Positions 2,891 through 58,327 of a stretch of 64,000 nucleotides of DNA are shown in pieces. The notes under the pieces were generated by a model. That model saw only the letters and a list, made by a program, of their open reading frames with translations. It did not search any database and was not told the DNA's origin. Made by a program: the position numbers and the translations under genes. Position 1 is the stretch's first letter, and each line of letters starts with the position of its first letter. Source of the DNA: Candidatus Binataceae bacterium (GTDB taxonomy: Bacteria > Desulfobacterota > Binatia > Binatales > Binataceae); contig DATKSL010000033.1 in NCBI GenBank assembly GCA_035531675.1, positions 27,367 through 91,366 on the forward strand. Direction: 5' to 3'.

Positions 2891-3550
2891 ATGCGGGGCA
2901 CAGGACGGCGATCCTCATCGATACTCAACGGGTCCGGGACCGGCGATCGAGAACGGCGTAATTCCGGCAGCGGGCGCATCCGCCTGCCCGTCGGCAAGCC
3001 GCTGGTTGCGGTTTTTGGCAGCTCGGCGGCGCGCCCCGGCGACGGTCTCTACGAGCAGGGCTATCGGATGGGCGAACTGCTGGGCCATGCCGGTTTCAAC
3101 ATGATGACCGGCGGCTACACGGGGCTGATGGAGGCGGCGAGCCGCGGCGCTCATCAGGCCGGCGCCCACGTGGTCGGAGTCACGCTCGATCGTTTCGAGG
3201 GCAAGCCCAATAGCTACGTGATAGATGAAATTCCGACCGCGAGCTTTTGCGGCCGCTTCCGATGGTTGATCGGCCGGGCCGACGCCTATGTCGCGCTGCG
3301 CGGCGGGATGGGCACGCTGGCGGAAGTCAGCTTCGCCTGGCAGGAGCTGGCGGTCGGGATGATCGCGCCGCGTCCGCTGCTGCTGGTCGGGCCGGCGTGG
3401 CGCGCAATCGTCACGAGCTGGCTTGAGAACTGCACCACCGCAGCCGAAAAATACGCCGTCATGACATTGGTCGATAGCCCCGAAGAGGCCTGCGCCGCAC
3501 TGTCAGAGTTCTTCGCCGGCCATCCGGTTGCGCCGCGTGCGGCGCGCTGA
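2891..3550 (+). CDS. LOG family protein (cytokinin riboside 5'-monophosphate phosphoribohydrolase-like Rossmann protein)
   Basis: VAVFGSS...TGGYTGLMEAASRGA...GVT...RGGMGTLAEV motifs. ATG at 2891 has an AGGAAG RBS; the track ORF begins at a TTG at 2849. Confidence 0.7.
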   Translation: MRGTGRRSSSILNGSGTGDRERRNSGSGRIRLPVGKPLVAVFGSSAARPGDGLYEQGYRMGELLGHAGFNMMTGGYTGLMEAASRGAHQAGAHVVGVTLDRFEGKPNSYVIDEIPTASFCGRFRWLIGRADAYVALRGGMGTLAEVSFAWQELAVGMIAPRPLLLVGPAWRAIVTSWLENCTTAAEKYAVMTLVDSPEEACAALSEFFAGHPVAPRAAR

Positions 3551-3557
3551 ACCGGGG

Positions 3558-4451
3558 TCAACTCGACGCGAAGCGGGCGCGGCGCTCCGCCTCGATACGC
3601 TCGGCCTCCTCACGGCCCGGCTGGCGCGGCATGAATCCCGGCCGATAGTCGCGCTCCTCCCAGCCGTGGTCGGTGGAATCCCATACGTACGGCAGTTTGA
3701 CGATCGTGCCCGGCGCGTTGATCGATTCAAAGGCGCCGAGCGCATCACGGATGATCGCGCGCTGCAGCTCGGGATCGTCGGGCTTGCCGGTCTGATGGCC
3801 GAGTGGGAAATTCACGAACACCGCGCGCGGCGGCTTGACCGCCTGCGTGATATCGAGCGCCGAGGTCATCGTCAGGGTTGGAATCCCGGCTTCCTCGACC
3901 ACGCGTGCGATCAGTCCCACGGACTGATGGCATACGGGTCAGGCGGGAACCTGGTAGAACGCGTCGGCGTGCGCCGCCTTGAGTTCCGCGACGATAGTGG
4001 GCGCCAGCTCCTCGCGGACCTTGCGCGCCGAGTAGATGCCGCCCATGAAGCTGAAGGCCGGGTCGACCAGTTCGCCGATGATTCCCGCGCGCTCGAACTC
4101 GCGCAGCCGCTCGAGCGGAAAGACGCAATTGGGATCGCGCGCCGCGTCGGCGGTCGGGTAGCCGAAGTGCCAGATGGCAAGCTCGTCGCGCCGCGCGTGC
4201 TTCGGGATGCGCCGGTACGAGGCGTCCTCGCGATGGAAGCGGGGCTGATCGCGATAGAGAATGCCGCCCGAGCTCATCAGCGCCAGCCGGCATTGGGCGA
4301 GCGGGCGGGCCAGCGGCGTCCACGGGATGCCGTCGTTGACCACCCATCGATAGGGTTCGTACTGGCTGTAGAGTTCGCGCGTCCGCGGTATGTAGTCGAT
4401 AGGCATCTCGGCGTTGCTCCGTGCGGTTGAGCCTTCAAGCCTGGCCACCAA
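3558..4451 (-). CDS. Selenoprotein, glycine/betaine/sarcosine/D-proline reductase selenoprotein B (GrdB/PrdB)-like; in-frame TGA (Sec) at 3941..3939
   Basis: Track ORFs 3939..4451 and 3558..3920 are in the same frame and separated only by one TGA. Read-through gives ...AFYQVPA-U-PVCHQSVGLIARVVEEAGIPT..., i.e. a UxxC motif. A SECIS-like hairpin sits 10 nt downstream and a tRNA-Sec is at 19165..19260. Family assignment is from general sequence character (VVEEAGIP...) and is tentative. The start codon is uncertain (TTG/GTG at 4451/4448, or an internal ATG). Confidence 0.6.
3910..3928 (-). promoter_or_regulatory. SECIS-like hairpin downstream of the UGA codon
   Basis: mRNA 5'-AUCAGUCC GUG GGACUGAU-3' is a perfect 8-bp stem starting 10 nt after the UGA, with a G/U-containing apical loop as in bacterial SECIS elements. 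Confidence 0.5.
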
Positions 4452-4549
4452 GCTTTCCGGGGTCTCGATTCCGGGCCGCTGGCGTCAGCACCCGCGCGAT
4501 TGGACAATAGTATAAAGCTTCACATCTTGCACCTGCGCTGGAGCAAACG

Positions 4550-6346
4550 ATGGCACTACGAATCGAGGATTACGCACTGATTGGCAACACCCTGACGAGT
4601 GCCCTGGTGGGGCGTGACGGTTCGATCGACTGGCTATGCATGCCGCGTTTCGACTCGGGCGCCTGCTTTGCCGCGCTACTCGGGGGACCGCAGAACGGGC
4701 GCTGGCTGCTCGCACCGGACGGCGAAATTCTCGGCACTCGGCGATCCTATCGCGGCGACACGCTGATCCTCGAGACCGAATTTCGCACCGCCGATGGAGT
4801 GGTTGCGATTATCGATTTCATGCCGCTTGCCGAGCACGGCGAGCATGTCGATGTGGTCCGGATTGTCGAGGGTCGCCGCGGCGCCGTGCCGATGAAGATG
4901 GAACTCAGCCTGCGCTTCGACTACGGCAATGCCATCCCGTGGGTGGTGCGGCGCGATTACGGATTGCGCGCCATCGCGGGTCCCGACGCGGTCGTGCTGC
5001 GCACCCCGGCGCGGTTGCATGGCAAAGACTTCACCACCGTCGCCCACTTCACGGTCAGCGAGGGCCAGTCAATCCCTTTCACCATCACCTGGTACCGGTC
5101 GCATCTGCCGGAGCCCCCCGGCCGTCAGCCGCGTCGACTGCTGGATGAAACCGACCGCTACTGGACCGCCTGGTCGGCGCGCTGCTCCTACCATGGACCA
5201 TGGCGCGACATCGTGATGCGTTCGCTCATCACTCTCAAGGCGTTGACCTACGGGCCGACCGGCGGAATCGTGGCGGCGCCGACCACGGCGCTGCCCGAAC
5301 AGCTCGGCGGCGTGCGCAACTGGGATTACCGGTTCTGCTGGCTGCGCGACGCGACCTTCACACTCTATGCGCTGATGTCGTCGGGCTACACTGACGAAGC
5401 CCGCGCCTGGCGCGAGTGGCTGCTACGCTCAGTCGCCGGCCATCCGCAGGAACTTCAGATGCTCTATGGAATCGCCGGCGAGCGGCGGCTCACCGAGCTC
5501 GAATTGGATTGGCTCGACGGTTACGGGGGCAGCCGCCCGGTACGAATCGGCAATGCTGCGCACGCGCAGTTCCAGCTCGACGTGTGGGGTGAGGTGATGG
5601 ACGTGCTGCACCTCGAACGCCGGCACTCGATCGCGCATGGCGAAGAGACCTGGAACCTGCAGCTCGCGCTGATGGACTTTCTCGAAGGCGCCTGGGACAA
5701 GCCCGATAATGGAATCTGGGAGGTGCGCGGTCCGCTGCGTCATTTCACGCATTCGAAGGTGATGGCATGGGTGGCGTTCGATCGCGCCGTCAAGGCGGTC
5801 GAGATGTTCGGCCTGGAGGGTCCGGTCGAACGATGGCGCGGGCTGCGCGACCGGGTTCGCGCCGACGTGATGCAGTCGGGGTTCAGTCGCGAGCGCCAGG
5901 CCTTCGTTCAGTACTTCGGCGCCGACAGTCTCGATGCGTCGCTGCTGATGATGCCGCTGGTCGGATTCATTCCCGCCACCGACCCGCGCATGCTTTCGAC
6001 AGTTGCGGCGATCGAACGGGAGTTGACTCATGACGGCTTCGTCAAACGCTATGCGACCCAGGAAAGCGTCGAGCATCTGCCGCCCGGAGAGGGCGCGTTT
6101 CTGCCCTGCAGCTTCTGGCTGGCGGACAACCTGGCGCTGGCGGGCCACGAAACCAAGGCGCGCGCAATGTTCGAACGACTGCTCTCATTATGCAACGACG
6201 TCGGCTTGATTGCCGAAGAGTACGATCCCGAATTGAAACGTCTGCTGGGCAATTTCCCGCAAGCCTTCACGCACGTCTCGCTGATCAATTCAGCCTGCAA
6301 CCTGAGCCTCGCGCGCGGCCCGGCTCATCACCGCGCCGCCTCCTAG
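4550..6346 (+). CDS. Glycoside hydrolase family 15 (glucoamylase/trehalase-like)
   Basis: 598 aa; GH15-type N-terminal beta-sandwich plus (alpha/alpha)6 catalytic domain motifs (WDYRFCWLRDATF, NGIWEVRG, AEEYDP); GGAG RBS. Confidence 0.8.
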   Translation: MALRIEDYALIGNTLTSALVGRDGSIDWLCMPRFDSGACFAALLGGPQNGRWLLAPDGEILGTRRSYRGDTLILETEFRTADGVVAIIDFMPLAEHGEHVDVVRIVEGRRGAVPMKMELSLRFDYGNAIPWVVRRDYGLRAIAGPDAVVLRTPARLHGKDFTTVAHFTVSEGQSIPFTITWYRSHLPEPPGRQPRRLLDETDRYWTAWSARCSYHGPWRDIVMRSLITLKALTYGPTGGIVAAPTTALPEQLGGVRNWDYRFCWLRDATFTLYALMSSGYTDEARAWREWLLRSVAGHPQELQMLYGIAGERRLTELELDWLDGYGGSRPVRIGNAAHAQFQLDVWGEVMDVLHLERRHSIAHGEETWNLQLALMDFLEGAWDKPDNGIWEVRGPLRHFTHSKVMAWVAFDRAVKAVEMFGLEGPVERWRGLRDRVRADVMQSGFSRERQAFVQYFGADSLDASLLMMPLVGFIPATDPRMLSTVAAIERELTHDGFVKRYATQESVEHLPPGEGAFLPCSFWLADNLALAGHETKARAMFERLLSLCNDVGLIAEEYDPELKRLLGNFPQAFTHVSLINSACNLSLARGPAHHRAAS

Positions 6347-11966: not shown

Positions 11967-13334
11967 ATGGCCATCCAGTCGATCAATCCAGCCACCGGCG
12001 AGGTGCTGAAGAGTTATCAGGAAATGACGCCGGCGGCAGCGCAGGAGATCGTCGGCAAGACGCACCAGGCGTTTCTCGATTGGCGTCGGACCAGTTTTGA
12101 GCATCGTGCAGCCTTGATGCGCAAGGTGGCGGAGATGCTGCGTGCCAACGCCGGCGAGTATGCGCGCCTGATGGCGCAGGAGATGGGCAAGCCTCTGCGC
12201 GACGGTATCGGTGAGGCGCAAAAGTCCGCGCTGGGATGTGATTTCTACGCCGAGCACGCCGAACGGTTCCTGGCCCGCGAACCGGTAGCGACCGAGGCGC
12301 GCAAAAGCTTCGTCGCCTTTAATCCGCTCGGCGTCGTGCTGGCCGTGATGCCGTGGAACTTTCCGTTTTGGCAGGTGTTTCGTTTCGCTGCGCCGGCGTT
12401 GATGGCGGGCAACGGGGCGGTGCTAAAGCATTCCTCGAATGTGCCGGGTTGCGCGTTGCTGATCGAGGAGATCTTTCAAAGTGCCGGCTTTCCCGAGCAT
12501 CTGTTCCGCACGCTGCTGATTGGCAGCCGGCAGGTCGACGCCGTAATCGAGAATCCGCTGATTCGGGCGGTGACCCTGACCGGCAGCGGCCCGGCCGGCC
12601 GAGCGGTCGCGCGCAAGGCCGGGGAGATGCTCAAGAAGACGGTGCTCGAACTCGGTGGCAGCGATCCTTATCTGATACTCGAGGATGCCGACCTCGAGCT
12701 CGCGACCGCGGTGTGCACCAAGGGACGGCTGGTGAACTCCGGGCAGAGTTGTATCGCGGCCAAACGGTTTATCGTCGTCGACAAGGTTCTAAAGGAGTTC
12801 GAGTCGTTATTCGTCAAACGGATGAGCGCCGCCAAAATGGGCGATCCGCTGAGCGCCGAGACCGAGGTCGGACCGCAGGCTGGTCACGAACTGCGCGACT
12901 CGCTTCATCGCCAGGTCGAGGCCAGTATCGCCAAAGGGGCGCGCTGCCTGCTGGGCGGGACGATTCCCAACCATCCCGGCGCGTACTATCCGCCGACCGT
13001 GCTGACCAACGTCAGCAAGGGGATGCCCGCGTATGACGAGGAATTGTTCGGTCCGGTGGCCGCGATCATCCCGGTGCGGGACGAAGCGGAGGCGATCGCG
13101 ACCGCCAACGACTCGGTGTTCGGGCTCGGCGGGGCGGTGCTCACGCGCGACCTGGCGCGGGGCGAGCATATCGCGGCTGAGATGATCGAGAGCGGCTGCG
13201 TGTTCGTCAACGACGCGGTTCGATCAGACCCGCGGCTGCCGTTCGGCGGCGTCAAGGAGAGCGGTTACGGCCGCGAGCTTGCCGTCTATGGCATCAGGGA
13301 GTTCGTCAACATCAAGACCGTACTGATCGCCTGA
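11967..13334 (+). CDS. NAD(P)-dependent succinate-semialdehyde/aldehyde dehydrogenase
   Basis: ALDH motifs VLELGGSDP, catalytic C (GQSCIAAKRF) and glutamate box; GGAGG RBS before the ATG at 11967. Confidence 0.85.
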   Translation: MAIQSINPATGEVLKSYQEMTPAAAQEIVGKTHQAFLDWRRTSFEHRAALMRKVAEMLRANAGEYARLMAQEMGKPLRDGIGEAQKSALGCDFYAEHAERFLAREPVATEARKSFVAFNPLGVVLAVMPWNFPFWQVFRFAAPALMAGNGAVLKHSSNVPGCALLIEEIFQSAGFPEHLFRTLLIGSRQVDAVIENPLIRAVTLTGSGPAGRAVARKAGEMLKKTVLELGGSDPYLILEDADLELATAVCTKGRLVNSGQSCIAAKRFIVVDKVLKEFESLFVKRMSAAKMGDPLSAETEVGPQAGHELRDSLHRQVEASIAKGARCLLGGTIPNHPGAYYPPTVLTNVSKGMPAYDEELFGPVAAIIPVRDEAEAIATANDSVFGLGGAVLTRDLARGEHIAAEMIESGCVFVNDAVRSDPRLPFGGVKESGYGRELAVYGIREFVNIKTVLIA

Positions 13335-19164: not shown

Positions 19165-19260
19165 GGAGGAGGAAGGGGCCCGGTGGCCCCACCGGTCTTC
19201 AAAACCGGCTTAGCGGGCATTGCGCTTGCTGGAAGGTTCGACTCCTTCCCCCCTCCGCCA
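19165..19260 (+). tRNA. selC: tRNA-Sec (selenocysteine tRNA, anticodon UCA)
   Basis: GGAGGAGG-AA-GGGGCC/CGGT/GGCCCC (6-bp D stem, 4-nt loop)-CCGGT/CTTCAAA/ACCGG (anticodon UCA)-long variable arm-GAAGG/TTCGACT/CCTTC-CCCCCTCC-G-CCA. The 8+5 acceptor/T geometry, long variable arm and D-arm match bacterial selC; the loops are identical to E. coli selC. Confidence 0.85.
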
Positions 19261-36211: not shown

Positions 36212-36288
36212 GCGCCCGTAGCTCAACTGGACAGAGCATCGGACTTCGGATCCGAGGGTTGGGGGTTCGAATCCCTCCGGGCGCGCCA
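36212..36288 (+). tRNA. tRNA-Arg (anticodon TCG)
   Basis: GCGCCCG-TA-GCTC/AACTGGACA/GAGC-A-TCGGA/CTTCGGA/TCCGA-GGGTT-GGGGG/TTCGAAT/CCCTC-CGGGCGC-G-CCA. Confidence 0.9.
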
Positions 36289-52956: not shown

Positions 52957-52996
52957 GGCGCAGGCGGACGTTGGCGCAGAGAGGAGAGCAGGACGA

Positions 52997-53395
52997 ATGA
53001 ATTCGGATGAGCGGAAGGCGGCGGCGATCAGGTTTTTCGAAAATCTCAATCATCCCGATCCGGCGGTGTTCGAGGATCTAATCGCGGAAGATTTCAAGTT
53101 CGAAATCGTCTCCGGGCTGACCGAGTTTCCGCCGATTCATGGACGGCGGAATTTTGCGGCAACCGAATGTGCGACCCTGAAGCGGCTGTTTCCGTCCGGA
53201 CTCAAGCTCAAGATAGAAAGGGTGATTTGCGACGGACCGCACGTGGCGGTGCTTGCCGAAGCCGACACCGTCGCCGCGAATGGCAGGAAGTATCATCAGC
53301 GCTACAACTTCTACCTGCGTTTCGAGGGCGATCAAATCGTGGAGGGTCGCGAGTACAACGATACCAACCTGGTACGCGAAGTCTTTCTCAGCTAG
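52997..53395 (+). CDS. NTF2-like/SnoaL-like (ketosteroid isomerase-like) protein
   Basis: 132 aa; GAGGAGAG RBS before the ATG at 52997; alpha+beta cone fold pattern. Confidence 0.5.
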   Translation: MNSDERKAAAIRFFENLNHPDPAVFEDLIAEDFKFEIVSGLTEFPPIHGRRNFAATECATLKRLFPSGLKLKIERVICDGPHVAVLAEADTVAANGRKYHQRYNFYLRFEGDQIVEGREYNDTNLVREVFLS

Positions 53396-53592
53396 CCCAC
53401 CTTCGCAAAGCGAGGCGGACGACTCGATCGATCGGGCCGCCCGCCGTTACCTCGACGAACGGTTTCCGGCACGGTCACATCCGTGCAGCGCACCAGCCCG
53501 GGTTGAAAGTCACGCGCCGATTCCAGGCCGTTGCTGGAGATCGCCGCAGCCTGAGACATCCCCGGCGAAGAAAAGGCAAACATCGATTTTCT

Positions 53593-53619
53593 GTAAACGA
53601 AAGGCCGCGTGGCTACGTC
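53593..53619 (+). promoter_or_regulatory. ECF-type promoter motif GTAAAC-N17-CGTC upstream of the G/Y-rich secreted protein gene
   Basis: Same -35/-10 architecture (AAC...CGT) and spacing as the motif upstream of the ECF sigma gene at 54394..54420. Confidence 0.45.
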
Positions 53620-53685
53620 GAAAGGGCAACAACCGAACGGAACTTAGGGTTGTGCGACTTTCGCAGCATAAAGGAGATTTGCATC

Positions 53686-54183
53686 ATGAGGTCAAAGATA
53701 ACCGCGGCGCTCGCTTTCGCGGGATTGCTGATGGTCGCGATTCCGCTCACCGCCTCGGCCAATGATCAGGCGACCTGCACGCACACGCCGGGCTGGGGAT
53801 ACGCCAAGCCGAAGATGTACCGCAACTGGCGGCAACTGCACTGCGGCGGCAGGTACGGCTACAACCGGAATTCCTTGCAGAATTACCTCGGGGGCGGATT
53901 GTTGCCGTTCGCACCCGCGTATAACCAGGCGGCTCCCGGCTACGGCTACGGCAACGGCTACGGCTACGGCCACGGCCAGTATGCACCGGCCTATAACCAG
54001 TACGGGCCCTACGCCAATCGCGACGACGATGACGACAATGGTGGCGGCAATGGATGGGGTGCGCAGCGCGGAGGCAACTGGAATGGCGGCGGATGGTACA
54101 ACCATCCGGGGCACTTTCATGGCGGCAACTACCGGCATGGACGCCATTCCGGTCGCGGCGGCTGGCATCACGACGACCGCTAA
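53686..54183 (+). CDS. Secreted low-complexity Gly/Tyr/Asn/Asp/His-rich protein
   Basis: AAGGAG RBS and signal peptide (MRSKITAALAFAGLLMVAIPLTASA), then GYGYGNGYGYGHGQY...DDDDDNGGGNGWG...HGGNYRHGRHSGRGGWHHDDR. Confidence 0.6.
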   Translation: MRSKITAALAFAGLLMVAIPLTASANDQATCTHTPGWGYAKPKMYRNWRQLHCGGRYGYNRNSLQNYLGGGLLPFAPAYNQAAPGYGYGNGYGYGHGQYAPAYNQYGPYANRDDDDDNGGGNGWGAQRGGNWNGGGWYNHPGHFHGGNYRHGRHSGRGGWHHDDR

Positions 54184-54222
54184 AGCAGTCGACTAAGCGG
54201 CGCGCGTAATCAGGCGCTTATT

Positions 54223-54261
54223 GCAACCCGGATGCGTACCATCGGTACGCGTCCGGGTTGC
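54223..54261 (+). terminator. Long hairpin (18-bp stem, 1 mismatch) after the G/Y-rich protein gene, probable terminator
   Basis: gcaacccggatgcgtacc atc ggtacgcgtccgggttgc followed by tcgctggttcttcgg. Confidence 0.4.
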
Positions 54262-54393
54262 TCGCTGGTTCTTCGGATACGACGAATATCCGCGCTTTCC
54301 AACAGTCGGTACAATACGGCGCGCTTGCCGTCGCCGATTCGCCCGAGCGCAGCGGCACCTGACTCTGATTCTGCCGCCGATATCCGCGGCCAT

Positions 54394-54420
54394 GTAAACG
54401 ATTTATGCTCGGGTTTCGTC
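54394..54420 (+). promoter_or_regulatory. ECF-type promoter motif GTAAAC-N17-CGTC upstream of the ECF sigma factor gene (autoregulatory candidate)
   Basis: gtaaac gatttatgctcgggttt cgtc, about 63 nt before the 54483 start. Confidence 0.45.
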
Positions 54421-54482
54421 CAAAGCGTTGTGGAGCTAACATGCCCAAAACGGCCGGAAGCCAGTCGGCGATGCCCGCGTGA

Positions 54483-55100
54483 GTGCCGGGCGATGGCGCT
54501 CCCGGACCGAATACGCCGGGTGGATCATTTCAGGTGGGGCCTTCCGATGAGGATCTGTGCGCAAGAATTGCCGAGCGCGATGCCCAGGCGTTCGATCTCA
54601 TCGTCGAACGGCACCAGGCGCGGACCTACCGGCTGGCCTGCTCGATACTCGGGAATGAAGCCGATGCCCGGGATGTCTCGCAGGACGCCTTCATCCGGCT
54701 CTACGAGGCGGCGCACAGTTTCGACCGCCGGGCGCGCTTTTCGACCTGGTTTTATCGGATTCTGGTCAACCTTTGCATCGACCATCAGCGGCGCAATCGA
54801 TGGTGGCGAAAGGTCGTGCCGCTCGCGACGCCTGACGATGACCCCGATGCGATCCAGCTCGATCCGCCGTCGACCGAGCCCGGGCCGCTCGATGAGGCGC
54901 TGCGGCGGCAATCCGTCGAGCAGCTCAACCGGGCCCTGGGCGGGCTCTCGGCGCATCAGCGAACGGCGGTGTTATTACAGGCACAACAGGGTTTTACAAG
55001 TAAGGAGATCGCGGCCGTGCTCAATTGTTCGGAGAGCACCGCACGCGTCCATTTGCATCGCGCGATTACGCATCTGCGCAAGGTGATGAAGGACGAATGA
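54483..55100 (+). CDS. RNA polymerase sigma-70 factor, ECF subfamily
   Basis: Region 2 (ARDVSQDAFIRLYE, FSTWFYRILVNLCIDHQRR) and region 4 (ESTARVHLHRAITHLRK). Confidence 0.85.
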   Translation: MPGDGAPGPNTPGGSFQVGPSDEDLCARIAERDAQAFDLIVERHQARTYRLACSILGNEADARDVSQDAFIRLYEAAHSFDRRARFSTWFYRILVNLCIDHQRRNRWWRKVVPLATPDDDPDAIQLDPPSTEPGPLDEALRRQSVEQLNRALGGLSAHQRTAVLLQAQQGFTSKEIAAVLNCSESTARVHLHRAITHLRKVMKDE

Positions 55101-55103
55101 CCG

Positions 55104-55619
55104 ATGTGGCGCGCGCATCCTGATACCGCTTTGATCCCGTACCTCCACGGCGAGCTCGCCGCCGAGGAGGGCGTCGCCCTGCGGGCGCATCTGGAGGGCT
55201 GCGCGCGATGCCGCGAGGATCTGGCGGCGGCCGAATCGGTGATCCGGGAGGTCGCGCATCGCGTCGAGCAGATTCCCGAACCGGACTGGACGGTTTATCA
55301 GTATCAGTTACGGCGCAAGCTCAATGCCCGGCGCGGCGAGCAGGTCCGCCGATGGCGCCCGGGGCTGGCCTGGGCATCGCTGGCGGCCGCTGCCGTCGCC
55401 ACCAGCGCTATCGTCCTGGCGTTCGCCCTTTCGCCGGGACCGCGCCCGCCGGCGGTCGATCAGCTTGAGGTCGAGGGGGCCCTGGCCGACGCCGACATCG
55501 GCTTGCTGCGCGACTATCCGGTCGTCGCGCATCTCGATTTGCTGGAAAACTACGACGTGATTGAGAATCTCGATCAACTCACGCCGCCGAGCCGCCCGCA
55601 TGCAGTTTCCGGGTCGTAG
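55104..55619 (+). CDS. Anti-sigma factor (zf-HC2 zinc-finger, single TM)
   Basis: HLEGCARCRE HxxxCxxC motif, TM helix (AWASLAAAAVATSAIVLAFAL); 4 nt after the sigma gene. Confidence 0.75.
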   Translation: MWRAHPDTALIPYLHGELAAEEGVALRAHLEGCARCREDLAAAESVIREVAHRVEQIPEPDWTVYQYQLRRKLNARRGEQVRRWRPGLAWASLAAAAVATSAIVLAFALSPGPRPPAVDQLEVEGALADADIGLLRDYPVVAHLDLLENYDVIENLDQLTPPSRPHAVSGS

Positions 55620-55992
55620 CATCATCGCGGGTACCATCGTGCTGGCCGCGCTGACTTTCACAGGCATCCGGCGGGTGCAGGCGCAAGGCCAGCAGCCGGA
55701 CCTGAACATGCTGCTGAACCTCGACCTCTTCTCCTCGTCCGCCGATGCCGACCAGGCCCAGCCTCCGGCGCCGGGCGGCTCGATGCTCGACCAAATTCAG
55801 GCGCTCCGGCAGATGGGCTATCTGCATGGCAATGGTGAGGACGCGCCGCCGCCGCCGCCACCGGGCTACAGCGGCGAGGGGCCGCCTTATCCGCTCAGCG
55901 GCGAGGCCGGTCCCTTTCCGCCGCTCAATAACGCACCGGATGTTAATACGCTGATGCCGTGGCTTTACGACTTCCTCGGGGGCGGCCGATGA
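55600..55992 (+). CDS. Secreted proline-rich protein, hypothetical
   Basis: Signal peptide ending AQA, poly-Pro tract; overlaps the anti-sigma stop. Confidence 0.45.
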   Translation: MQFPGRSIIAGTIVLAALTFTGIRRVQAQGQQPDLNMLLNLDLFSSSADADQAQPPAPGGSMLDQIQALRQMGYLHGNGEDAPPPPPPGYSGEGPPYPLSGEAGPFPPLNNAPDVNTLMPWLYDFLGGGR

Positions 55993-56522
55993 TCCGCGTA
56001 TCGCGATGGGGGGCAACGGCGCTGGTCGTCGCCACGCTGCTAGTCGGCGCGATTGCGTCTCCGGCGCGAGCCCAGCAGCCGATGAATGGCGCCGAGCGGG
56101 CGCTAATCGCACAGCATCGCGATCAATGGGCGCGGTTGACCCCGGACCAGCGCCAACGGGTGCTCGATAATTATCGTCTATGGCAGCGGATGACGCCGGC
56201 CGCGCGCCATACTGCGCAGCAGAATTATCAGCAGTTTCGCCGCCTCCCCCCGGGCGAGCGCGAGCAGGTGCTGCAGGGGCTGCATCGATGGCGCGCGCTG
56301 CCGCCCGCCGAGCGTCAGAATCTGCGCCAGGCCTACGGGCGCTTCAACCGTCTACCGCCGGCGCGCCGCCAGTGGATGGTCCAGCGCTACCAGCATTTCC
56401 AGCATCTGCCCCCCGCCCAGCGCCAGCATGTGCTCGAGAACTATCGCCGCTGGCGCCACATGTCTCAGCAGCAGCGCGAAGAGCTGCGCAGGCGCTTCGG
56501 AAAAAGGCATCACCAGCACTAG
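55989..56522 (+). CDS. DUF3106-like periplasmic repeat protein
   Basis: Signal peptide, then five repeats of W/Y-R-xL-PPaeRqxvlq. Confidence 0.5.
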   Translation: MIRVSRWGATALVVATLLVGAIASPARAQQPMNGAERALIAQHRDQWARLTPDQRQRVLDNYRLWQRMTPAARHTAQQNYQQFRRLPPGEREQVLQGLHRWRALPPAERQNLRQAYGRFNRLPPARRQWMVQRYQHFQHLPPAQRQHVLENYRRWRHMSQQQREELRRRFGKRHHQH

Positions 56523-56638
56523 CCGTCGCGTCCGGCCCGTCGTCAGCCGGCGCGCGCGCCCTTTCTTATTTCCGCGCGACGCTTGTATGATCCTCTCGCG
56601 CTGGATCCCGGGGTCGGATCACGCAAAGGAAATCCGCG

Positions 56639-58327
56639 ATGGCCTACGACCTGTTGATTCGCAATGCGAAAATCTGCGACGGCTCGGGCGCGCCGCTTTA
56701 CGACGGAGCGGTCGCAACCGCGGGCGGCAAGATCGTCGCGGCCGGTAAAATCGACGGCCGCGCGCGGCGTGAGATCGACGCCCAGGGCAGGATCGTCGCG
56801 CCCGGATTTATCGATATCCATACCCATTACGACGCCCAGATTTCGTGGGATCCGCTGCTGACCAGTTCGTGCTGGCACGGCATCACGACTGTGCTGATGG
56901 GCAATTGCGGGGTCGGCGTCGCGCCGTGCAAGCCGGAGGCGCGCGGGATGCTGGCGTGGGACCTGGTGAACGTCGAGGCGATGCCCTACGACGTGCTGCT
57001 CGGCGGCGTGTCGTGGGAGTGGGAGACGTTTCCCGAATATATGGCGGCGGTGACCGGCAAGGGCGTCGGTCTGAACGTCGGTTTCCTGGTGCCGCTTTCG
57101 GCGCTGCGCACCTACGTGATGGGCGAGCAGGCCAGCGAGCGGGCCGCGTCGGGCGACGAGATCGGACGGATGTGCGCGCTGCTGCGCGAGGCGATGGTCG
57201 CGGGCGCCTACGGTTTTTCGCTGAGCCTGTTCGAGCTGCATAACGGTTACCAGGGCCGGCCGCTGGCGAGCCGCCTGGCCAGTCTCGAAGAGCTGACCGC
57301 GCTCAGCCGCGTGATGCGCGAGCTCGACCAGGGCATCATCGAGGTCAACGTGCCGCGCACCGGCGGCGTGATGCTGACGGACGAGGCCTTCGACCTGCTG
57401 GTGATGCTCGCGCGCGAGAGCCGGCGGCCGGTGACGTGGCTCGCGCTGCTCGATTTCCCCGGCATGCCGGCCGAGATTCATCAGCAGGTGATGGCGCGCT
57501 TCGCGCCGTTTCTTCAGAGCGGCCTCAAGATTATGCCGCAGACCACGCCGCGTCCGCTGAAGGTCTTCACCACGCTGCGCGATCCGTTCGTGTTCGGCAG
57601 CTTCCGATGCTGGCGGGGGGCCTTCAATCGCAGCGTCGCAGAGCAGATGGCGCTGTACCGATCGCCGTCGTTTCGCGACGAATTCCGCGCCGATCTCAAA
57701 CAAGGCGGCGGCGCAGCGTTTCGCGGCCACTGGGATACGGTCGAGATCGCGGGCGTGGCGCATGCGGAAAATCGCCCGCTGATCGGCCGCACCGTCGAGC
57801 AAATCGCCGCCGCACGGGCGCAGGATCCGATCGACGCCTTGCTCGATCTCGCCGTCAGCGAGGAGCTCGCCACCGGCTTCACGGTCTCGGTCGCGAACGT
57901 CGACCCGGCGCGTGTCCAGACCCTGGTGACGATGCCGAACGTGCTGCTCGGACTCTCCGACGGCGGCGCGCACGTCAACCAGTTCTGCGACGCCGGGCTG
58001 CCCAGCTACGTGCTGCATGAATGGGTGCGAAAGCGCGGCGTGATGACGATCGAGCAGGCGGTGCGACGGCTCACCTCCGAGCCGGCCGACTTCATGGGAT
58101 TGCGCAACAAGGGTCGCATCGCCGCGGGCCTCGACGCCGACCTGGTGCTGTTCGATCCCGACGCGATTCGCCCCTGCGTCACCGAGCAGCTCGACGATCT
58201 GCCGGGCGGCAAGCCGCGGCTAATCGAACGTGCCGAGGGTATCGCGCTGAGCGTCGTCAATGGCGAAATTCTGTTCGAAAACAACGTCTACCAGGGCGGC
58301 CTTCCCGGGCGACTGGTGAAGTCCTGA
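56639..58327 (+). CDS. N-acyl-D-amino-acid deacylase (D-aminoacylase) family amidohydrolase
   Basis: APGFIDIHTHYD metal-binding motif, GITTV; 562 aa. Confidence 0.8.
   Translation: MAYDLLIRNAKICDGSGAPLYDGAVATAGGKIVAAGKIDGRARREIDAQGRIVAPGFIDIHTHYDAQISWDPLLTSSCWHGITTVLMGNCGVGVAPCKPEARGMLAWDLVNVEAMPYDVLLGGVSWEWETFPEYMAAVTGKGVGLNVGFLVPLSALRTYVMGEQASERAASGDEIGRMCALLREAMVAGAYGFSLSLFELHNGYQGRPLASRLASLEELTALSRVMRELDQGIIEVNVPRTGGVMLTDEAFDLLVMLARESRRPVTWLALLDFPGMPAEIHQQVMARFAPFLQSGLKIMPQTTPRPLKVFTTLRDPFVFGSFRCWRGAFNRSVAEQMALYRSPSFRDEFRADLKQGGGAAFRGHWDTVEIAGVAHAENRPLIGRTVEQIAAARAQDPIDALLDLAVSEELATGFTVSVANVDPARVQTLVTMPNVLLGLSDGGAHVNQFCDAGLPSYVLHEWVRKRGVMTIEQAVRRLTSEPADFMGLRNKGRIAAGLDADLVLFDPDAIRPCVTEQLDDLPGGKPRLIERAEGIALSVVNGEILFENNVYQGGLPGRLVKS

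Follow-up and report, generated by a model that had tools for sequence, protein, structure and literature searches.

The described systems closest to the one reported here, a module around an extracytoplasmic function (ECF) sigma factor at positions 53593–56522 of a 64-kb stretch of DNA from a Candidatus Binataceae bacterium (contig DATKSL010000033.1 of GenBank assembly GCA_035531675.1; the whole stretch is called the window below), are SigW–RsiW of Bacillus subtilis, with SigX of the same species, and rpoE-rseA-rseB-rseC of Escherichia coli. SigW reads TGAAAC-N16-CGTA and SigX reads tGtAAC-N17-CGaC; the -10 element of E. coli RpoE is of the TCTGA type, unlike that of the Binataceae promoters. 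Binataceae themselves are an uncultured lineage, abundant in soil, for which we know of no described regulatory biology. SigW is by sequence the closest solved relative of the Binataceae sigma factor (PDB 5wuq, E = 7e-18), and SigW–RsiW resembles the Binataceae system in its two-domain sigma factor, in its co-transcribed single-pass anti-sigma factor with an HxxxCxxC motif, and in an autoregulated promoter of the form xAAC-N16/17-CGTx. RsiW is also the only match to the anti-sigma factor, though a weak one. The system differs in that sequence identity is low and the SigW equivalog cut-off is missed, in that the periplasmic part of the anti-sigma factor and the regulon proteins are unrelated, and in that the Binataceae operon carries two extra periplasmic genes. 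The E. coli system likewise joins an autoregulated sigma factor to a membrane anti-sigma factor, and its operon continues with accessory genes for the periplasm or envelope; RpoE is related to the Binataceae sigma factor (PDB 1or7, E = 5e-15), and the release by regulated proteolysis known from E. coli would hold for the Binataceae system as well. Here too there are differences: the RpoE equivalog cut-off is not reached, RseA is not a zf-HC2 protein, and the proline-rich and DUF3106 proteins of the Binataceae operon are unrelated to RseB and RseC. As a rule ECF sigma factors autoregulate, and a conserved protein is accompanied by a conserved promoter, a logic by which ECF classifications assign promoters (PMC7826278); near-consensus promoters with spacers of 16–18 nt are needed (PMC7776599).

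Against this background the Binataceae module very likely is a canonical autoregulated switch, in which an ECF sigma factor and its zinc-binding anti-sigma (ZAS) factor drive their own operon and the gene of a Gly/Tyr/His-rich secreted protein. Directly seen are the motif GTAAAC-N17-CGTC, its statistical excess, its conservation upstream of the sigma factor and Gly/Tyr-rich genes, the domain identities of the proteins, and the tight coupling of the operon genes. The motif was counted on both strands of the window and gave two matches, against 0.07 expected by chance; two or more matches were obtained in none of 100 dinucleotide-preserving shuffles. The two copies are those of the original prediction and are exact: promoter P1 at 53593–53619 (+; GTAAAC at 53593–53598, 17-nt spacer, CGTC at 53616–53619) and promoter P2 at 54394–54420 (+; GTAAAC at 54394–54399, 17-nt spacer, CGTC at 54417–54420). 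P1 has TGTAAACGAA as its -35 and CGTCGAAAG as its -10 block, and P2 has TGTAAACGAT and TTTCGTCCAAAG; the spacer length is that between GTAAAC and CGTC. Both are intergenic, each faces a gene on the + strand, and their likeness extends beyond the motif itself, to TGTAAACGA around the -35 and CGTCnAAAG around the -10. Variants with one mismatch were not above chance in the window (5, i.e., 3 extra sites, against 2.7 expected). A weight matrix trained on 146 sites from related loci scored P2 at 34.9 bits and P1 at 28.3 bits; the runner-up in the window, at position 12789, reached 14.1 bits, and the best site in 20 shuffled windows 20.4 bits. The site at 12789 was rejected, its score lying inside the null range. 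A distance of about 65 nt to the start codon had been given for both promoters: it holds for P1, with 66 nt between it and the ATG (53686) of the Gly/Tyr-rich gene, and probably fails for P2, which lies about 113 nt before the likelier start of the sigma factor gene, the GTG at 54534 (62 nt before the GTG at 54483 that opens the longest reading frame).

Species-representative genomes were scanned with the sigma factor protein, which returned 80 loci, the best of them from Candidatus Binataceae at 91% and 88% identity; 64 Binataceae-type loci, in each of which 250 nt or more of DNA lay upstream, formed the comparative set. An exact GTAAAC-N17-CGTC stands on the strand of the sigma factor gene, less than 260 nt from its start, in all 64. 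A second copy on the opposite strand, back to back with the first, is present in 58 of the 64, a third copy 3' of the operon in 25, and the spacer measures 17 nt in 145 of 147 sites. These sites always face the gene downstream of them, 55–115 nt before its start codon. Across the 510 kb covered by the loci only two further copies occur, one of which is the promoter of the Gly/Tyr-rich gene in locus L002; no copy occurs in 67 kb around 10 loci that hold only distant ECF paralogues (31–36% identity). The consensus reads cgtGTAAACGAAt…gTTTCGTCaAA for the sigma factor promoter, tGTAAACGaA…CGTCCAA for the divergent promoter, and cTGTAAACGAcC…GCGTCTTA for the downstream promoter; in an alignment of the window with L081 and L002 the P2 element is invariant. 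The four-gene operon is conserved throughout the related Binataceae loci, and on contigs of Rokubacteria or Methylomirabilota the sigma factor orthologues (52–55% identity) keep GTAAAC…CGTC upstream of their unit. The recurrence of the motif at sigma factor orthologues is thus, by the comparative data, more than coincidence, and the motif is very probably the promoter read by the adjacent sigma factor, an assignment made because ECF sigma factors usually autoregulate (PMC7826278, PMC7776599). Use of one ECF promoter twice, for predicted autoregulation and for an extra secreted target, as originally proposed, is strongly supported by this phylogenetic footprinting, the motif being found at all 64 sigma factor loci and at homologues of the Gly/Tyr-rich gene. 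Our literature search found no ECF paper that uses GTAAAC in a promoter sense.

A scan of metagenomes for TGTAAACGAA-N15-CGTCNAA was tried as a route to the wider regulon and was uninformative: of the 120 stretches returned most were chance matches in low-GC contigs, and 8 were modules of the Rokubacteria type with a sigma factor orthologue, a charged-repeat gene or both. One stretch (L092) held a more distant ECF sigma factor, at 31% identity. On one high-GC contig (L108, about 386–417, - strand) the pattern lies upstream of a gene for a secreted Met/His-rich protein (MNMGDEDNPAAMDMMMSSEHMEHD…).

The gene behind P1 (53686–54183, +) was read from its open reading frame and encodes a secreted protein of 165 aa rich in Gly, Tyr, Asn, His, Trp, Asp and Arg. 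A Sec signal peptide (…PLTASA|NDQ) is followed by two cysteines in a conserved N-terminal motif. The signal peptide, GYGYGNGYGYGHG repeats, a DDDDD run and a His-rich tail agree with the original description, and the ATG is preceded at 9 nt by an AAGGAG ribosome-binding site. The protein belongs to no Pfam or NCBIfam family. Only 4 homologues were found among 5.8 billion proteins; of 1.84 billion cluster representatives searched with a profile, 7 matched, and one of the 7 (P0022, E 1.8e-4) is weak and apparently unrelated. The family shares the signal peptide and a D-x-A-T-C-x-H-x-P-G-W-G-Y…C block; signal peptide, both cysteines and PGWGY are invariant among homologues that are 50–90% identical. 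The tails vary freely, with insertions and deletions that preserve the reading frame, and the seven residue types named above make up 51–84% of the mature proteins; the enrichment in His, Asp and Trp is kept in composition and not in sequence. Metal binding by the protein, as originally suggested, is from this composition a plausible guess; His-rich disordered periplasmic proteins under ECF control were looked for in the literature and none was found.

DNA upstream of the Gly/Tyr-rich homologues was readable in six contexts. The exact motif precedes the gene in the window and in its close relatives L081 and L087, and again, with a diverged spacer, in L002 (64% identity), in the latter three at 60–80 nt before the ATG. 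Loci L082–L085 (protein P0003, 60% identity) have GTAAACGG-N15-GCGTCTAA at 77 nt before the ATG, and L086 (P0004, 53% identity) has GTAAGC-N17-CGTC, with one mismatch in the -35 block. In L082–L085 the gene lies between an open reading frame of unknown function and genes for an enoyl-CoA hydratase and an ATP-binding cassette (ABC) transporter, and no sigma factor gene is nearby. When the window, L081, L002 and L082 are aligned, TGTAAACG and CGTC-x-A are invariant while spacer and flanks diverge. Because the promoter travels with the gene, the Gly/Tyr-rich gene can be placed in the regulon through P1, and this is the strongest evidence available for it. The original notion of a self-contained module goes beyond what the 64 kb of the window can show: a target can be unlinked from the sigma factor, as in L082, and at this locus three promoters are present in related genomes.

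Just after the Gly/Tyr-rich gene lies a perfect, GC-rich hairpin of 18 bp (54223–54261, +), which is likely the terminator between the two transcription units and would explain why the sigma factor operon needs a promoter of its own. The RNA of 54184–54290 folds with -55.2 kcal/mol (z = -5.9), a stability equalled by none of 200 shuffles. A scan of 53300–56700 for consensus terminators called none; the hairpin was passed over by this strict scan as it is without a long T run.

The operon itself comprises the sigma factor, a zf-HC2 anti-sigma factor, a proline-rich periplasmic protein and a DUF3106 protein, as in the original prediction. The sigma factor gene (54534–55100, +; GTG start; 188 aa) matches Sigma70_r2 (69.3 bits) and Sigma70_r4_2 (52.4 bits) of Pfam, both above their cut-offs, and TIGR02937 for sigma70-ECF (112.7 bits against a cut-off of 42.9). 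It has only the sigma-2 and sigma-4 domains, and its length falls within the ~170–200 aa of ECF group 4; upstream of its own gene stands a promoter with AAC in the -35, CGT in the -10 and a spacer within 16–18 nt. It lies below the cut-off of every named NCBIfam equivalog (RpoE, SigW, SigM, SigE, SigY and others), the best being PRK05602 (135 bits against 208), with RpoE at 86 against 236 and SigW at 91–98 against 209–243; the closest solved sigma factors are SigW, SigE, AlgU and RpoE. The start is probably the GTG at 54534 rather than that at 54483, as judged from orthologues, which begin MEPSDEEL or MGPSDEDL: the gene call in L081 is the 188-aa form, and an earlier start is impossible in L001 (91% identity), where the reading frame does not extend further upstream.

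The second gene (55104–55619, +) was delimited by zf-HC2, hydropathy and orthologues and encodes a predicted single-pass anti-sigma factor of class I, ZAS type, with predicted binding of the sigma factor and of zinc. Its N-terminus matches zf-HC2 (33.4 bits against 22.2) and contains AHLEGCARC, an HxxxCxxC motif (H28-x3-C32-x2-C35). One transmembrane helix spans about residues 88–110 (hydropathy peak 2.16 at residues 91–109) and is followed by a tail of about 60 aa with a conserved LDLLENYDVIENLD (69 orthologues), which would be periplasmic in the membrane-anchored topology that the sequence suggests. A HxxxCxxC domain encoded beside the sigma factor gene, a membrane stretch and a conserved C-terminal tail are what is expected of the ZAS type. 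Coupling within the operon is tight: 3 nt separate the sigma and anti-sigma factor genes, the anti-sigma factor and proline-rich genes overlap by 20 nt, and the proline-rich and DUF3106 genes overlap in ATGA.

The proline-rich protein (55600–55992, +; from translation; 130 aa, signal peptide) begins within the anti-sigma factor gene by the overlap just given, has no Pfam match, and occurs as an orthologue in 56 loci, where the stretches PDLxMLLNLDLF and SMLDQIxxLxxMGYL are conserved. Its PDLxMLLNLDLF and the LDLLENYDVIE(H/N)LD of the anti-sigma factor, both periplasmic, are the most conserved parts besides the zinc finger. An LLxNxD-hydrophobic pattern is common to LDLLENYDVIENLD in the anti-sigma tail and to the mature N-terminus DLNMLLNLDLF of the proline-rich protein, and both stretches are among the most conserved in 56–69 orthologues; they may, as a speculation, form an interaction or mimicry motif.

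The last gene (55989–56522, +; its start overlapping the previous stop in ATGA) encodes a protein of 177 aa and pI 11.9 that carries a signal peptide and is assigned by Pfam to DUF3106 (PF11304; 137.9 bits against a gathering threshold of 24.3, E = 2e-40). Five repeats had been counted in it; there are six repeats of 18 residues, punctuated by LPP, and a seventh helix. The AlphaFold model is confident (predicted local distance difference test, pLDDT, of 84.6) and all-helical: LPP turns connect about seven helices of 15 residues each. A role as a chaperone of the Spy/CpxP type (Spy, CpxP, ZraP) was considered and found unsupported, there being no similarity in sequence or fold. In four loci of other phyla (L208–L210 and L212) a DUF3106 protein 24–30% identical to this one likewise comes last, after an ECF sigma factor gene that comes first and one or two small unannotated proteins; these sigma factors are from other clades, which sets the operons apart from that of Binataceae, and GTAAAC-N17-CGTC was not seen upstream of the four units. 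From this recurrence DUF3106 appears to be an ECF accessory across phyla. The literature search found no publication on the function of DUF3106 and no paper that links it to ECF sigma factors.

From these parts the following mechanism can be proposed. The sigma factor (54534–55100) would be held at the inner membrane by the co-transcribed single-pass ZAS anti-sigma factor (55104–55619). A putative stress signal at the envelope would inactivate the anti-sigma factor, most likely by regulated proteolysis that starts in its conserved periplasmic tail, by analogy with RseA and RsiW, and the freed sigma factor would bring RNA polymerase to promoters of the form tGTAAACGA-N15-CGTCnAA, at which we infer the transcription start sites. 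Transcription from P2 would raise the sigma factor, the anti-sigma factor, the proline-rich protein and the DUF3106 protein, i.e., positive feedback with negative feedback built in. P1 would drive a monocistronic unit, closed by the 18-bp hairpin, for the Gly/Tyr/His-rich protein, which is secreted and probably disordered. The switch would thus put out a set of periplasmic or envelope proteins, whose putative roles would lie in the response to that signal.

Several results weigh against this reading or leave it incomplete. The DUF3106 protein matches no PDB entry by sequence and no solved fold by Foldseek; folding of the DNA after its gene gave no convincing terminator, so that the 3' limit given for the operon is provisional. 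AlphaFold gave no confident model of the Gly/Tyr-rich protein (pLDDT 40, from an alignment of 5 sequences), which is consistent with disorder, a weak indication given so small an alignment. An ECF sigma factor gene in L092 (1356–1975), whose product is only 31% identical to the Binataceae sigma factor, is preceded by TGTAAACGAA-N15-CGTCCAA. This last result bears most on a rival explanation by which the motif is a true ECF promoter whose reader is another sigma factor from elsewhere in the genome, the adjacent sigma factor being a target, and not its own activator, in a cascade or through cross-regulation: the specificity for the motif would not be unique to one orthologue group, and about half of ECF sigma factors are reported not to autoregulate (PMC7776599). 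We regard this as improbable, for the motif tracks the adjacent sigma factor orthologue in 64 of 64 loci and in two phyla, with no copy near 10 paralogues, and it is on such tracking that autoregulatory promoters are assigned in published classifications.

Two other explanations would do away with a sigma factor promoter at one or both sites. P1 might be a chance or relic site in front of a low-complexity artefact, an unregulated reading frame; the Gly/Tyr-rich protein is without a family, extremely rare and without a confident structure, and relics of genes in the flanking DNA point to a rearranged region. Yet its signal peptide, two cysteines and PGWGY are invariant and its tail indels stay in frame, the ribosome-binding site AAGGAG is strong, the motif is kept before the homologues in four sequence contexts while spacer and flanks diverge, and two exact motif matches by chance have a probability below 1%, so that we consider an artefact very improbable. 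Slightly less credible still is a conventional repressor or activator site in place of a sigma-specific promoter. The conserved blocks are indeed short; the element, however, is bipartite and non-palindromic, holds its 17-nt spacer in 145 of 147 cases, is always oriented to the downstream gene and carries the AAC and CGT signature of ECF promoters, and a scan of 53300–56700 found no sigma-70-like promoter. All three explanations are much less likely than the autoregulated ECF switch.

The surroundings of the operon differ among the genomes. The orthologous modules of Binataceae and Rokubacteria (L001–L071, L121, L152, L184 and others) resemble that of the window in the four-gene operon, the motif and the spacer; most of those of Binataceae differ in a divergent back-to-back motif and often in a third copy after the operon, and those of Rokubacteria in a secreted charged-repeat protein in the slot of the Gly/Tyr-rich gene. 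In most Binataceae the slot upstream of the sigma factor gene holds a divergent gene, for a His-rich helical repeat protein or a small lipoprotein, and 3' of the operon there is often a gene for a secreted three-domain protein of about 390 aa; each of these partner genes, divergent or downstream, carries its own copy of the motif. The lineage of the window has lost both the divergent gene and the ~390-aa gene and has the rare Gly/Tyr-rich gene instead. Of the ~390-aa gene a relic of 29 codons is left at 53458–53544 (-), matching the middle of the protein (tblastn, 86% identity over 29 aa, E = 3e-13), which shows that rearrangement has taken place at the locus; the relic in L081, at 4218–4652 (-), is longer and frameshifted. 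In L002 an intact minus-strand motif (2383–2409) lies just upstream of the sigma factor promoter. It is followed by no gene and runs into the Gly/Tyr-rich gene at its 3' end; the stretch aligned to it is degenerate in the window (about 54300–54345) and in L081. L001 has a gene for a resistance-nodulation-division (RND) pump in the slot and no partner gene. Such losses, relics and replaced partners imply that the set of targets at the locus turns over, the operon and its promoter being fixed.

The secreted His-rich helical repeat protein (GRFDNGYLDEHPEV…) is encoded in L004 at 3263–3861 (-) and by equivalents in about 47 loci, and it passes the threshold of the Pfam family MHB, mycobacterial haemophore (33 bits against 27.4). 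On contigs labelled Rokubacteria or Methylomirabilota (L061–L063, L068, L121, L139, L142, L152 and L184) the motif precedes a gene for a secreted, highly charged repeat protein (DRRDIRQDRRDL…); this gene lies directly upstream of the sigma factor orthologue and apparently opens the unit.

A more far-reaching view of this turnover, which we hold to be rather unlikely, is that the sigma factor operon stays in place as a hub and has beside it a slot for exchangeable cassettes, into which different lineages of Binataceae and Rokubacteria have brought unrelated genes, each with a copy of the promoter. The products are all secreted, low-complexity or repeat proteins: the MHB-like His-rich helical repeat protein, the small lipoprotein, the triple-domain Cys protein, the charged DRRD-repeat protein and, in the window, the disordered Gly/Tyr/His/Trp/Asp-rich protein. 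The Gly/Tyr/His-rich family would then be a young, fast-evolving periplasmic protectant, which could act as a metal sponge or as a hydrophilin-like shield against desiccation or osmotic stress, and the anti-sigma tail would be modulated in the periplasm by two conserved proteins, DUF3106 and the proline-rich one.

As an autoregulated ECF switch, the module provides a precise promoter and a core regulon for a Binataceae ECF sigma factor, and ties two orphan families, DUF3106 and the rare Gly/Tyr/His-rich secreted family, to a response directed at the envelope. The kind of system is well known, a conserved and ordinary bacterial stress switch; its architecture is as expected for an ECF system and leaves current understanding unchallenged.

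Other features of the window stand apart from the module. Directly upstream of it lies a gene with a SnoaL_2 domain (52991–53395, +), which is syntenic in L081 and L002 and without a copy of the motif. SnoaL_2 domains are known as extensions of some ECF sigma factors (ECF56); nothing links the present gene to the sigma factor module. A cobalamin riboswitch was found at 1945–2107 (-; Rfam RF00174, 109 bits), and tRNA genes at 36212–36288 (+; tRNA-Arg, anticodon TCG) and 19165–19260 (+; tRNA-Sec, anticodon TCA), the latter implying that the source organism uses selenocysteine.

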